Source: Folioceros fuciformis (Eukaryota). Taken from it: 56,529 nucleotides of DNA. The DNA lies in assembly GCA_049999805.1 (NCBI GenBank), contig JBNGIO010006320.1, positions 473,790 to 530,318 on the forward strand, written 5' to 3'. Under the pieces are notes generated by a model, which was not told where the DNA came from, did no database searches, and saw nothing but the letters and a program-made list of their open reading frames with translations. The position numbers and the translations under genes are program-made. How positions within the stretch are numbered: the stretch's first letter is position 1; each line of letters starts with the position of its first letter. Below are positions 32,894 to 37,364 of this stretch, in pieces.

Positions 32894-35800
32894 CTAAAGG
32901 GGGCAGTTATCGTGTTTTTTGGGAGGGTTTGTCAAAATCTGCGCCACCGAACGAAAATCACAACATCGTATTTAGCTGAAGATGTCACCACTGATGAGAG
33001 GATCGTGTGAAACTCAAATACGCCACGACAGCACCTTACCTTCCCTCGGAGAGACTTCAGCTCTGCACAGATGTGACGCCGCGTGTCATGGGGCATAATA
33101 ACAGCATCCACATAGCCCAGGCTGGCAGCGACATAGGGGTTATTAAATTTCTCTTCGTACTCATTAACAGCGCTCTCCACGTCCTTTCGTGATTTGTATA
33201 GGATTTCAGCAGCACCCTGTCAGTTCACACCCCATGACTATGAGTGCTCGTCTAAGATCCAGTTTCATACAGAGCAGCCTGAAACTTCAGTGGAGCAGTG
33301 ACCAGGGCTTAAAGCAGACCTTTGCACCCATGACAGCAATCTCGGCAGTTGGCCACGCAAAGTTTGAATCGCCACGCAAATGCTTGGAACTCATCACTGC
33401 GAGGTCCGCACATGTCAGCAGCAGATTTGGAGGAGGGTGCAAGATACGAAACCACATGCAAGGGTCAGAGTTTGACTACCGTCATATGCACCACCATAAG
33501 CCTTCCGAGTGATGACGGTGACTTTAGGGACAGTAGCTTCCGCAAAAGCATAAAGGAGTTTTGCACCATGCTTGATAATGCCTCCATGTTCCTGAGCTAC
33601 TCCTGTATTCAATCGGTTTATCGTGTTCAGAACATGTTACACTATGCCGCTATGTTTATCCAACAGCTACAACAGAATGAGCCAGAGAAGAACAGTCACA
33701 GATATGTAAGGATTCAAAGGGTTTGGAACACAAATTCGTGGACCTTAAGAGAGCAAGGGAGCTCACCTGGAAGGAATCCTGGGACATCAACGAATGTCAC
33801 AATAGGAATGTTAAAACAGTCGCAGAATCGCACAAACCTGGCTGCCTGCGCATGAAAGCTACAGCATTTGAGGTTCTCCGGACAGTGACACTGGATCATG
33901 ACGAGAGCCATTGAACAACAATGAATGGACTGTTGTTTGCTTTTATTACCTTCACCGATGAATCAATGTCAAGGCACCCAGCCCCAACTAGTGGTTGGTT
34001 TGCAACTAGTCCCACAGTCTCACCATTGATCCTCTGCAGGTGACAGGCAAAGTGGTTGCCAACGTCTGTGAATGTGCAGCTACCCATACACACTGGCACA
34101 TATTTGTCAATCCAATAACGACGTTCACAGACACTACGTTTTCACAATGGGTAGAACGAATATTGTACATACCGCAAATCCCACAATTATGTTTCGTGCA
34201 TACTCTGGCATGATCTCAAAAATATTGGCATCATCTACCACCTGACATGGAGCACAGATAGGTGCTTAGCACACAGCCAGACATGAAGTCCGGCGTTACT
34301 CAGAACATGGGTATTTGTGCACATGCCATGGAGCATGCGGCTACATCAATAAAAATGACAGCTTACTTTTTCCAATGCTTCGTACATGTCATACGGTGTG
34401 TTGCTATCCCCTGGGACAAGGTAGTCCAAGGACGTTGCTTTCCTGTCCCTGCAATGGCATGCCAACAACACATGAGTGCATATTGCTTAACACGGAGGCC
34501 ACATCCTCAGGTGGCACACTGGACTGACACCAAAGATACAGTGTGAAGCTCCTTACACTGGGTCCGACGTGGGCCACACAGGAGGAGGTGACCGATTACT
34601 TGAAGGCAGAAAGCCCATCAGCTCTCGTATTCTGGTTCATGAAACCCAGGCTCGTACTCAAATGCCACGAAAGGATGGGCTGTGGTCCTAAAGAAAAAAT
34701 CGTTTCCAAACAGCTTAATAAATCCTAATGCTGTAGACAAGTACCTCGCCAGGGCATCAAGATCATTGTTAAATGCACCGTGCACAACTCCTGACTTTTT
34801 TGTGTGAACACTGGCGCCACCTAAAGATTCCTGCACGGAATGACCTCGAAGTTGTTGACACATTTTAGACTGGCTTGTGAAGAAGAAAACTGCATTAGGA
34901 TGAATCCCTCTCAGAATGCAAGTTCATGAGCAGAAACGAACCTGTGTGACATCTTCTTGAGTGACCTGTTTCAGCACGTCTGGGCCAGTTACAAACATGT
35001 GAGAAGTCCCACGAACCTGCAGGCACCCATCAACAGCTCCAGCTTACATCCACGGGAGATTCTCACAAACTCGCTGCCAGTTAGGCCAAAGGCTATTTTT
35101 CGTTCCCAATAGTTTTACATACCATGAAAACAAAATCTGTGAGTGCTGGTGAGTACACAGCTCCGCCTGCATAGAGGGGAAATCAACATTTCACACTGGG
35201 TGCTAATGAGAGGTTCACTAATGCCAGAGGGGCCAACCAAACGACTTTGGTACCAGCACAAGGACCCATTATAAGCGAGATTTGTGGTACAACTCCAGAC
35301 GCCAAAACATTTCTCTGCTAGCGGAAGAACGGCTCAACGTGAGACAACACTCATGCAAAATAAAGTCGGAAGAAGAGTTCTAAATATCAGTTACGTAAAC
35401 ATGGCAATTTATCAGATGCCCCTCGACCGACTGATAAAAAATCTGCTCACATGTGGATAAATTACAACCTGAAAGACGTCAGCGTATGCTGCAAGCGACA
35501 CCACCCCCTCTTGAATGCGCGCACCCCCAGAATCATTTAAACCGATGACCTTCATTCCAGAAAGAGGACCTCTAAATACGACAAAGAAGCACGCGAAAGC
35601 CTGAAAAAGTTCTTATGATGCTGCAGCTGTAAAAAAACCCAAAGGTCACTACCGGAGCACCCGCAGTCATGGCTTTCTCCAGTATCTGCAAGAACGTGAG
35701 GAGCCTAAGCTCATGAGATCTCTTTGCTTTTGAGCTTTAAACGTCCTACAGGAATACACATGAAGCTTTACATGCCTTGCAAATTTTTTGAGCATGAGTT

Positions 35801-37364
35801 TCGGAGAGGCTGCCACCGAAGACAGTAAAATCTTGGCTGAAGACGAACACCTGTCTGATAGGCACAAGCAGGTACAGCCATTCAGTGAGCAGGCAATCAA
35901 CCGAAAGCAAAATCCGTTTTTCCTAAAGCTAAGTAACTGCCTTAGTCTCCTCCTAATAGAATAAACATAAACTGCCATATACTAACCGTCCATGAATTGT
36001 GCCAGAGCCAGTTACAACACCTGAGTTCAGAAAGTTTGTTAGACAGGAAATCGACACATCCAAATGCTGGTTAACGAAATATATCCTGCCCTTCACAGAC
36101 TAGCTTGCAAACCATCTGACCGTATAATTTCTAATGCTTCAAAACTTTCAACATCCATTCACATGAAAGAAACGTGAACAAGATGTATAACTCAGGGACC
36201 ATGACTGAAAGGCCCCCACCATCTCCAGGTATTCGTTTTGTGGCCATGCTGAAGTCGTTGCACCGGTGCTGCACTAGCATTCCTAACACAATAGCAGCAG
36301 CAGTCCCATTGCCAGTTATTGTCATGCTTTCAGACAGCAAACAATAGCTCGATTTGCAGTATATACAAGATACAAAACTAAAACTATTGCCGTTGTCTCC
36401 TACATGTCGCACCAGTTTCATTGAAAGAGCCTTCATCCAAGAGCACGGAGATCCTCTCCCGTGCTGTCAGCTGCACATCAGGACAAGTCCACAACATTAC
36501 CACTGAAACACAATTTTCTGTAGCACGTACCTTCATAGTAATCACTGGTGACAAGAACATTCCAGCGCACCATGCAGAAAGCTAAAAGCAAACTACCTTT
36601 CCAGTTTTGTGCTGCTTCACAATCCTAGCCTCACCGCCCCCCATCAGTGCTGCCTCTCTTGCTGCCTTGAATTTTCCAATGACTGTCTGCTCCAAATCCA
36701 GCACACCACAAGCTTATAAGGTAAAAAAAGTTTATTCAAAGGGTGCAAAAACGAGGCATCTCACACTGGAAAGCCTTCTACCTGCGCGTCAGCTTCTGCA
36801 AGTATCTGTCGTTTCTGCATATGCATCTGCATCAGAGACAAGAGACCGAAAGGCGGCAGCTCAAAGGATCTGCTCTGCATCTTTGCTATTGTCTTGTACA
36901 GAAAAACTCAAAATTTCATGACAGCACCATTCCACACGCGACTCTTTACCCAGTAGCTGGAACACAGTGGAGCCTCGGATAGAATTCCTGCCCGGCTCTG
37001 GCTCTGAGAAAATCTGGCTAGCATGAGTCCGAATTGCCTCTTCATCGTGCAACCCTCCGAAAATCCACTTTCAAGGCAATCTCTTCTGGATGGCTTTCTA
37101 TTCTTACGGCCCCATGTCACCCATTTCAGGCTGCACAGCTCTTCCACGGAATAGTCGAGCCTTATTCACAGCGTCTTTCATCCTCTTGTGGTACACTCCA
37201 ATTCACGTCGCACATACCAGCGTACATGCTCTGCGCAAGCGTGCTAAACGGGAGATTTCTTGCAGTGACCGCCCGAGCAAGAAGGATAGTGAGACATAAC
37301 ATTCAATCCGATGAGGACGAGCTGCACACCAACGGACCTTCAGGAGAGCTGCGTAGTTGGACAT
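32894..37364 (-). CDS. PCCB: Propionyl-CoA carboxylase beta chain (carboxyltransferase), about 20+ exons; N-terminal transit-peptide exons and start approximate
   Basis: Exon-by-exon translation gives [146 protein letters not shown] and C-terminus KKHDNCPL*. Confidence 0.92.

Follow-up and report, generated by a model that had tools for sequence, protein, structure and literature searches.

The window, that is, the whole stretch of 56,529 nucleotides analysed here, has, on its minus strand between 37045 and 32894, an uninterrupted gene in which 22 coding exons alternate with 21 short introns. In the final model, a coding sequence of 1656 bases extends from an ATG at 37045 to a stop codon ending at 32894 and encodes a carboxyltransferase of 551 residues, which can be aligned end to end with propionyl-CoA carboxylase (PCC) beta subunits (PCCBs) of 510-574 residues. 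The introns measure 83-199 bases; 20 are of the GT-AG type and one (35686-35775) is GC-AG. The full carboxyl transferase domain (PF01039) is present, with its N- and C-halves on one chain. Five of six minus-strand open reading frame pieces match the Pfam profile, colinearly over profile positions 92-481, the weakest of the five at 20.6 bits, below the cut-off of 22.3. The features are as follows, X3 being the run whose contig is described below.

37046..37337, minus strand: 5' UTR part of exon 1, up to the contig end; X3 record 1-388 on 36950-37337; in-frame stop before the ATG
36950..37045, minus strand: coding exon 1, start codon, 32 residues, presequence-like; X3 contig
36782..36826, minus strand: coding exon 2, 45 bases, 15 residues; X3 record 389-433, unaccounted for between the flanking pieces
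36597..36686, minus strand: coding exon 3, where PCC beta homology starts; X3 record 434-523 and protein alignment
36413..36470, minus strand: coding exon 4; protein alignment, summed length in agreement with X3 record positions
36220..36282, minus strand: coding exon 5; protein alignment and X3 contig
35987..36020, minus strand: coding exon 6; protein alignment; alternative donor 35983 (4 bases on) with acceptor 35850
35776..35854, minus strand: coding exon 7; protein alignment and X3 contig
35653..35685, minus strand: coding exon 8, after the GC-AG intron; joint 35685/35776, plus-strand ends CT..GC
35469..35549, minus strand: coding exon 9; X3 joints and protein alignment
35254..35314, minus strand: coding exon 10; X3 joints and protein alignment
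35123..35166, minus strand: coding exon 11; X3 joints and protein alignment
34942..35016, minus strand: coding exon 12; X3 joints and protein alignment
34745..34830, minus strand: coding exon 13; X3 joints and piece, record 1053-1137
34557..34631, minus strand: coding exon 14; X3 joints
34367..34448, minus strand: coding exon 15; X3 joints and piece
34173..34241, minus strand: coding exon 16; X3 joints
33950..34033, minus strand: coding exon 17; X3 joints and piece
33767..33845, minus strand: coding exon 18, motif [21 protein letters not shown]; PF01039 match and X3 contig
33480..33602, minus strand: coding exon 19, ending in an Asp that matches D422 of S. coelicolor PccB; gapless alignment
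33320..33396, minus strand: coding exon 20; X3 joints
33040..33216, minus strand: coding exon 21, 59 residues, used as search query; X3 contig
32894..32938, minus strand: coding exon 22 and stop, C-terminal KKHDNCPL; X3 contig
32600..32893, minus strand: 3' UTR; X3 piece 32600-32938, record 1904-2242 of 2246

The gene model was built by spliced protein-to-DNA alignment with seven reference proteins, which agree, apart from two points, on the core exons from 36470 to 32897. Two exons lacking in the Mesotaenium protein are skipped by that reference, and the boundaries of one exon pair can be placed at 35987/35854 or at 35983/35850. For this pair (exons 6 and 7), the frame and total length are the same either way, and the joint lies outside the 15 listed for the X3 contig. 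This contig, a single one of 2246 bases, shows 21 joints on the window and comes from a probable RNA run (its kind is guessed) of a study other than that of the DNA runs. All of the 15 joints listed coincide with introns 7-21 of the model, and the record positions of all eight X3 pieces listed agree with it. By contrast, DNA contigs of the same organism (run X1) show no joints. The data support an intact PCCB gene that is spliced in a transcript-like contig.

It was also the X3 contig that revealed the 45-base exon at 36782-36826, which the homology model had missed. A first model of 536 residues and 21 exons was superseded because the 21 joints together with 45 unaccounted bases implied a missed exon. 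The added exon is the only open one of two candidate 45-mers flanked by AG..GT, and the depth of 10.2 in the bin 36704-36874 equals 45/171 of 38.9. The initial annotation had described a carboxyltransferase readable exon by exon without stops, and the 22-exon open frame bears this out, on the minus strand and in the place given. Its "about 20 short introns" was right as to their shortness, the exact count being 21, and the splicing that it had asked to see confirmed is found in the X3 contig. Its upper bound of 37364 does not mark the start codon: the contig starts at 37337, and, reading in frame, the first ATG that follows a stop lies at 37045. A start codon near 37364 was rejected, as it lies in another frame and upstream of the contig's first base. 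The true transcript start is perhaps further upstream than 37337; at the other end, the contig has four bases more than the stretch aligned down to 32600.

Assignment within the carboxyltransferase family

The window protein is a PCCB-type carboxyltransferase, predicted from its sequence to be a propionyl-CoA carboxylase beta subunit. All three PCCB-type motifs quoted in the initial annotation are present, while the motif FLQNITGFMVG, typical of methylcrotonyl-CoA carboxylase beta subunits (MCCBs), is absent from the window protein. The bit scores of the Riccia orthologue point the same way: 768 against human PCCB (7ybu_C, residues 73-574), 733 against Ruegeria PCC beta (3n6r_B), 633 against S. 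coelicolor PccB and 550 against the 12S transcarboxylase subunit, followed by 233 for geranyl-CoA carboxylase beta, 217-219 for human and Pseudomonas MCCB (217 for the human protein), 87 for glutaconyl-CoA decarboxylase and about 54 for E. coli AccD. Individual exons of the window behave alike. For exon 19, the match to human PCCB reaches 70.8 bits and that to human MCCB 19.2, and a search with exon 21 returns PCCBs at the top and no MCCB at E<=10. NCBIfam lacks a model for PCCB; its highest-scoring entry is the mmdA subfamily, where 742 bits fall short of the cut-off of 998.8. Since MCCB and AccD are not represented in the trees described below, the decision between PCCB and MCCB rests on these pairwise and profile scores. 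Hence, although MCCB and geranyl-CoA carboxylase beta subunits share the PF01039 domain and the length class, a misreading of one of them as PCCB is most improbable given the orthologue's 768 bits versus 217 and 233, the scores of exons 19 and 21 and the missing MCCB motif, and the original assignment to the PCCB type stands.

Residues 2-40 of exon 19 align without gaps to 384-422 of 1xnv_A and 402-440 of 7ybu_C, and the Asp that ends the exon corresponds to D422 of S. coelicolor PccB and to position 440 in human PCCB. According to PMC7835884, which cites Diacovich 2004, this Asp is conserved in enzymes carboxylating propionyl-CoA and influences substrate specificity, without being its sole determinant.

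Comparison with known systems places the protein further. Human PCCB (PDB 7YBU) belongs to the same family and length class and likewise extends N-terminally beyond the conserved domain, but its presequence is unrelated, and the protein described here comes from a plant-lineage host. In the window protein, some 48 residues precede the conserved domain, and a crude look at the first 20 gives four K/R and no D/E. S. coelicolor PccB (PDB 1XNV/1XNY) shares the carboxyltransferase hexamer family and the D422 Asp; however, it is bacterial and has neither introns nor a presequence. Its partners are AccA and the small subunit PccE. Plant MCCB, part of a mitochondrial biotin enzyme known in flowering plants, has the same Pfam domain but acts on another substrate, in leucine catabolism, and solved MCCBs score 217-219 bits against the Riccia orthologue versus 768 for PCCB.

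Descent and genomic surroundings

The nearest relatives found are proteins of the liverworts Riccia fluitans (R1flu_021930) and R. sorocarpa (R1sor_003822), with 79.8% identity over 500 columns. They are named "hypothetical protein" at NCBI and "Propionyl-CoA carboxylase beta chain" in UniRef, both by automatic annotation, and differ from the window protein in their N-termini and in length (574 and 563 residues versus 551). Identity is 72.8% to the Klebsormidium nitens "propionyl-CoA carboxylase beta chain", 67.7% to the Chlorella protein, 61-68% to bacterial PCC beta, 68-71% to alphaproteobacterial PCCBs and 53.7% to a 12S-transcarboxylase-like protein. PCCBs of Chlorella and Micractinium are among the relatives listed; streptophyte PCCBs include those of Klebsormidium, Closterium, Mesotaenium, Riccia and the EukProt record SM000144. 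Among the named land plants in the best 120 matches, PCCB occurs only in liverworts, namely in Riccia.

The trees, like the statistics on the N-terminus and GC content, were computed on the 536-residue model, to which the final one adds 15 residues that are not part of the conserved region. The window protein and Riccia are sisters, with 98 SH-aLRT support in a quick LG+C20 PMSF tree and 99/99 under LG+G4, and belong to a group of eight rows (86; 90/72) that also holds Klebsormidium, Mesotaenium, SM000144 and two unlabelled rows. The terminal branch (0.26-0.29) is not unusually long. Among the rows included, from which MCCB and AccD are absent, the window protein falls with the named PCCBs, and three outgroup rows of the 12S kind are set apart from it (support 100). 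The backbone of both trees is unresolved, with open forks for Closterium and for the chlorophytes, so the monophyly of all green-lineage PCCBs is not established. A position inside streptophyte-algal PCCBs, sister to Riccia, fits vertical descent; such a grouping is what the vertical retention proposed in the initial annotation would predict.

The genes adjoining PCCB are streptophyte-type. The gap-free block 22085-38270 that carries PCCB also holds HAUS5 and TRM1, and HAUS5 straddles a gap of 100 N (21985-22084), which ties the PCCB block to one with PI4K-alpha and a BTB-DUF3420-ankyrin (NPR/BOP-like) gene. The same scaffold bears an LRR receptor kinase and an ETR1_N ethylene-receptor-like gene, the nearest Atlas cluster of the latter being Streptophyta. 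Contaminant DNA, or recent horizontal transfer from a bacterium or other eukaryote, might come to mind for a PCCB, unexpected in land plants and 68-71% identical to alphaproteobacterial ones, but is hardly credible in view of the 21 spliceosomal-type introns confirmed by the spliced contig, the exon GC close to that of the window (0.495 vs 0.509), the block shared with HAUS5 and TRM1, the HAUS5 bridge to plant-type genes, a sister position to Riccia within streptophyte PCCBs and not with bacteria or fungi, and the recurrence of the sequence in a run of a second study. On this point too the initial annotation is upheld.

Possible role of the enzyme and the question of vitamin B12

Altogether, we consider it very likely that the locus is a nuclear gene, intact and transcribed, which encodes the beta subunit of a mitochondrial-type PCC in a streptophyte, the host being most likely a land plant of bryophyte grade. 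A land-plant host is suggested by the sister position to Riccia and by the streptophyte character of the adjoining genes, and a hornwort would agree with the GC content and the size of the introns. Judging from the family, six beta subunits would assemble with a biotin-carrying alpha subunit encoded elsewhere, and the carboxyl group would pass from carboxybiotin to propionyl-CoA, yielding (S)-methylmalonyl-CoA in the mitochondrion. This product may then go to a B12-dependent mutase or meet another fate. The gene itself would have been inherited vertically from a green-algal ancestor and lost in most other land plants. Inside the 56,529-nt window there is no PCCA or other partner gene, and we know of no activity of a beta subunit without its alpha subunit.

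Where PCC has been studied, its product is normally consumed by methylmalonyl-CoA epimerase and the B12-dependent mutase. The initial annotation had also mentioned reports of B12-associated genes in hornworts, and such a report does exist. PMC11439496 covers 1663 plant and algal libraries by BLASTp, reciprocal best hit, Pfam and phylogeny; it describes no mutase (MCM) in streptophytes, hornworts included, finds the adenosyltransferase MMAB/CblB in hornworts and liverworts but not MMAA/CblA in hornworts, and asks whether hornworts and liverworts retain some adenosylcobalamin-dependent metabolism. As that survey detected no MCM in its streptophytes and PCCB is found in streptophyte genera, PCCB seems to persist without a detectable mutase. 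A claimed potato methylmalonyl-CoA mutase is a phosphatase according to PMC8635114.

We find it plausible, if short of an even chance, that the PCC acts without a B12 enzyme. It could clear toxic propionyl-CoA, its product being hydrolysed or used as a building block, or it could be a promiscuous short-chain acyl-CoA carboxylase that might, for instance, supply mitochondrial malonyl-CoA. However, we know of no B12-independent sink for methylmalonyl-CoA established in plants, and the retention of CblB in hornworts and liverworts would be left without an explanation. A B12-free role would reconcile the absence of MCM from streptophytes in PMC11439496 with intact PCCB in at least five named streptophyte genera in addition to the window. 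Moreover, the Thermobifida fusca enzyme, which has the same Asp, carboxylates acetyl-, propionyl- and butyryl-CoA, as stated in PMC7835884.

It is possible, though rather unlikely, that the PCC feeds a complete route to succinyl-CoA via the epimerase and an adenosylcobalamin-dependent mutase, with B12 coming from microbial partners. Such a route is the normal fate of the PCC product in the organisms studied. In the green lineage, PMC12458973 reports a mitochondrial "carboxylation pathway" with the full PCC/MCEE/MUT/MMAA/MMAB set in most Trebouxiophyceae, to whose Chlorella vulgaris and Micractinium PCCBs the window protein is related; in streptophytes, on the other hand, the mutase was not detected. 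Land-plant PCCB, among the named best 120 matches, is confined to liverworts, on the side of the plant tree where PMC11439496 also describes CblB, in hornworts and liverworts. Yet that survey has no MCM in any streptophyte of its 1663 libraries and no CblA in hornworts, and no partner is encoded within the window. We regard as distinctly unlikely the more specific proposal that an adenosylcobalamin-dependent propionate route still operates in hornworts and liverworts, or at any rate in this plant and in Riccia, with a mutase that the surveys missed; the missed enzyme could be divergent, could have been discarded as contamination or could belong to an unrecognised type. If this were true, the "orphan" CblB of hornworts and liverworts would be explained, and vitamin B12 would have a part in the mitochondrial carbon metabolism of some land plants. 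Should there be no mutase, the point of interest becomes the role of PCC in a eukaryote without one.

A transcribed relic heading for loss, with no remaining function, is very unlikely. Most land plants seem to lack the gene (Riccia is the only land plant among the named best 120 matches) and no partner genes are known, but a 551-codon frame is open over 22 exons, none of the quoted motifs has been lost, nor has the Asp that matches D422, identity to Riccia is 79.8%, and the terminal branch is not elongated.

In the textbook account, as far as we know, land plants have methylcrotonyl-CoA carboxylase but no PCC genes and degrade propionate by a route resembling beta-oxidation. Finding PCCB conserved and expressed in a bryophyte-like plant would mean that the loss of PCC was incomplete at the origin of land plants, and the unremarked orthologues of Riccia and streptophyte algae point to the same. 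What is new is PCCB in an unexpected lineage, the enzyme family itself being known; the novelty is smaller than the initial annotation implied because the orthologues of Riccia and Klebsormidium are already named PCC beta in public databases. We found no description of a PCC gene in land plants in the literature, judged from listings and the beginnings of abstracts, and no paper discussing the Riccia PCC beta records; PMC8075897 makes no mention of B12, cobalamin or propionyl. The gene offers a concrete handle on the question, left open in PMC11439496, of why hornworts and liverworts keep CblB without a known adenosylcobalamin-dependent enzyme. A report of PCC activity in plant extracts dates from 1990 and is cited in PMC8518694.

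Structure of the PCCB gene

The window has about 51% G+C, and its minus-strand stop-to-stop frames from 32894 to 36713 contain carboxyltransferase sequence. Five of the six minus-strand ORF pieces match Pfam PF01039, colinearly from profile position 92 to 481, one of the five (20.6 bits) falling below the 22.3 cut-off. Exons were modelled with a purpose-written spliced protein-to-DNA aligner and seven reference proteins (four bacterial or unlabelled, two from Riccia, one from Mesotaenium). Between 36470 and 32897, the core exons are stop-free, have GT/GC-AG borders and agree across all seven references with two exceptions: the Mesotaenium reference passes over two exons missing from its own protein, and for one exon pair the borders can equally be placed at 35987/35854 or at 35983/35850.

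The PCCB stretch is present in three of the six public sequencing runs listed. Two of these are DNA-like and come from one sample, from which the assembly may derive; they contain 0.98 and 0.91 of the words sampled. The third, X3, belongs to a separate study, with a share of 0.28 and an RNA nature that is a guess only. Over 32600-37700, X3 yields a single 2246-base contig with 21 joints, and the DNA run X1 yields no joint. The 15 joints with reported positions match introns 7-21 of the gene model one to one, a GC-AG intron included, and the record positions of all eight reported X3 pieces agree with the summed exon lengths. The same contig revealed that the homology model was incomplete: 45 bases (record 389-433) fall between the piece on 36950-37337 and the one on 36597-36686, and depth in the bin 36704-36874 equals 45/171 of the X3 contig depth. 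That gap holds two 45-mers flanked by AG and GT/GC, only one of which is open. The two features concerned are:

36782-36826, minus strand: extra 45-base exon, the sole open candidate in the gap
35686-35775, minus strand: intron 7, with a GC donor (GC-AG), borne out by the spliced X3 contig

The final model comprises 22 coding exons separated by 21 introns, whose lengths span 83-199 bases with a median of 111. Its coding sequence, 1656 bases for 551 residues, runs from an ATG at 37045 to a stop codon ending at 32894. This end is exactly the lower bound of the initial annotation; its upper bound, 37364, does not mark the start codon, since the X3 contig starts at 37337 and the ATG at 37045 has an in-frame stop ahead of it. 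About 48 residues lie N-terminal to the conserved domain of the encoded window protein, and with four Lys/Arg and no acidic residue among the first 20, this N-terminus looks like a presequence.

Within the gene, at 35264-35504, the X1 contigs are broken into three pieces with a 27-base loose end at 35492, perhaps because the alleles differ or the assembly broke here; the spliced contig of X3 is unaffected.

Assignment among carboxyltransferases

In a protein search with exon 21 (59 residues), 51 of 368 candidates were matched at E<=0.001, headed by Riccia fluitans, Riccia sorocarpa and Mesotaenium. Both Riccia proteins carry the UniRef name 'Propionyl-CoA carboxylase beta chain' and are 79.8% identical to the window protein over 500 columns. 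Identity is 72.8% to the Klebsormidium nitens protein (PCC beta by its NCBI name), 67.7% to a Rhodospirillaceae PCC beta, 61% to other bacterial PCC beta and 53.7% to a 12S-transcarboxylase-like protein. The window protein itself is absent from the collection of 5.8 billion proteins searched, and NCBIfam, which lacks a PCCB model, gave an mmdA subfamily as best match, below its cut-off.

Against solved structures, the Riccia orthologue scores 768 bits with human PCCB, 733 with Ruegeria PCC beta and 633 with S. coelicolor PccB, followed by 550 with the 12S subunit, 233 with geranyl-CoA carboxylase beta, only 217-219 with human and Pseudomonas methylcrotonyl-CoA carboxylase beta (MCCB), and about 54 with AccD. 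Exon 19 of the window gene itself gives 70.8 bits to human PCCB versus 19.2 to human MCCB; for its exon 21, PCCBs rank first and no MCCB is matched at E<=10. These scores bear out the initial annotation, which had called the gene PCCB-type rather than MCCB-type; the PCCB-type motifs it named were found in the window protein, and its MCCB motif is absent from it. Exon 19 also matches positions 384-422 of S. coelicolor PccB in an ungapped alignment, which makes the last residue of the exon, an Asp, the equivalent of D422. According to the available text of PMC7835884, D422 lies deep in the substrate pocket and is conserved among enzymes that carboxylate propionyl-CoA; its mutation shifts specificity, and other determinants also exist. 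By family membership, the window protein would serve as the carboxyltransferase core of PCC and would move CO2 from the carboxybiotin of an alpha subunit to propionyl-CoA, giving (S)-methylmalonyl-CoA.

Descent of PCCB and the B12 question

A word-based search that took the Riccia protein as query scored 8000 candidates, the best 120 of which were considered. Named among these 120 are streptophytes (two Riccia species, Klebsormidium nitens, two Closterium strains, Mesotaenium and a EukProt record labelled SM000144), the chlorophytes Chlorella vulgaris and Micractinium conductrix, and the early-diverging fungi Dispira, Dimargaris and Blastocladiella; the remainder are mostly alphaproteobacteria. 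No land plant other than Riccia is named in the best 120 of 8000, where a land-plant orthologue would be expected near the top.

Trees were built from 45 rows: the window protein, 15 rows of named eukaryotes, 14 unlabelled rows of eukaryote length, 12 bacterial rows and three 12S-like outgroups; the remaining bacterial rows among the matches listed were not included. Both trees make Riccia the sister of the window protein, with 98 SH-aLRT (quick LG+C20) and 99/99 (LG+G4), and nest the pair in an eight-row group that also contains Klebsormidium, Mesotaenium, SM000144 and two unlabelled rows (support 86 and 90/72). Neither tree resolves the backbone or shows all green-lineage PCCBs to be monophyletic. 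The terminal branch of the window protein, 0.26-0.29, is not unusually long. This pattern is consistent with vertical descent and loss in most land plants, and it agrees with the earlier proposal of vertical retention. A recent transfer does not fit this pattern.

The literature on a B12-dependent fate of the PCC product points both ways. In its available text, a survey of 1663 plant and algal libraries for 13 families, PCC not among them, credits hornworts with METH, MTRR and CblB, C, D and J, and liverworts with CblB and CblJ, and asks whether some adenosylcobalamin-dependent metabolism survives in both groups; the same libraries gave methylmalonyl-CoA mutase (MCM) in no streptophyte and CblA in no hornwort (PMC11439496). 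Most trebouxiophyte algae have the complete PCC/MCEE/MUT/MMAA/MMAB route, as described in the accessible part of PMC12458973. PCCB thus persists in several streptophytes where the mutase is reported absent, so either the mutase was missed or streptophyte PCC has a B12-independent purpose. Provided that the PCCB reading holds, we regard a B12-independent purpose as quite plausible, if somewhat short of probable. An overlooked mutase, and with it the cobalamin-dependent route on microbial B12 that the initial annotation proposed, is on the same proviso rather unlikely.

The PCC enzyme family is already thoroughly known, and the Riccia and Klebsormidium orthologues already have automatic PCC-beta names; the novelty is a known enzyme family in an unexpected lineage. 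Riccia fluitans can reportedly be transformed, going by the title of PMC7432341. No land-plant PCC gene is described in the titles and abstract openings that full-text literature searches brought up. PCC activity in plant extracts goes back to a 1990 report, as cited in the available portion of PMC8518694, and a claimed potato methylmalonyl-CoA mutase turned out to be a phosphatase, according to the part of PMC8635114 at hand. The PCCB gene makes the open question of adenosylcobalamin use in bryophytes directly testable.

Scaffold surroundings

Five N runs mark scaffold gaps:

21985-22084, 38271-38370, 40494-40593 and 41635-41734: N runs of 100 bases
38662-38671: N run of 10 bases

The PCCB gene therefore lies inside a gap-free block, 22085-38270, which also contains a TRM1 tRNA methyltransferase gene and the remainder of a HAUS5 gene. 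The first gap divides HAUS5 in order, with profile positions 1-84 to its left and those from 125 onward to its right, a split that supports the join of the PCCB block to the left block. A CN-hydrolase gene lies to the right of the PCCB block. Other neighbours are:

485-2417, plus strand: BTB-DUF3420-ankyrin gene of NPR/BOP-like architecture, at the left scaffold end, in the left block
14439-20864, minus strand: PI4-kinase alpha (PF19274, PF00613, PF00454), one intronless open frame of 2141 codons, in the left block
about 41.5-44.4 kb: LRR receptor-kinase gene, right of the PCCB block, broken by one N run
51016-53944, minus strand: ethylene-receptor-like gene (domains ETR1_N, GAF, HisKA and receiver), right of the PCCB block

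In the Atlas, the ETR1-like gene falls closest to a Streptophyta cluster (score 0.99). Judging by the neighbouring genes and the liverwort sister position, the host is likely a bryophyte-grade land plant. The G+C of the window and the PCCB intron size are similar to published values for the hornwort Anthoceros angustus (49.6% G+C and a mean intron of 173 bases in the available text of PMC7027989), a likeness that is not proof. No PCC partner gene was found within the window.

The intronless PI4-kinase alpha gene stands 12 kb from the 21-intron PCCB gene; it may have arisen as a retrocopy, or its lack of introns may be a trait of the lineage. Further features are:

4544-5701 and 9006-10121, both minus strand: two single-exon paralogues, 3.3 kb apart, 55.1% identical over 354 residues
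10894-12226, plus strand: two adjoining open frames with a weak NosD-type (right-handed beta-helix) Pfam match (E 1.7e-5)
55347-55694, plus strand: copia-type reverse transcriptase fragment (RVT_2, E 1.4e-16), close to the right end

One of the paralogues has a weak, sub-threshold DUF7870 match and the other has none. A NosD-type beta-helix protein is of an unusual kind for a plant scaffold.
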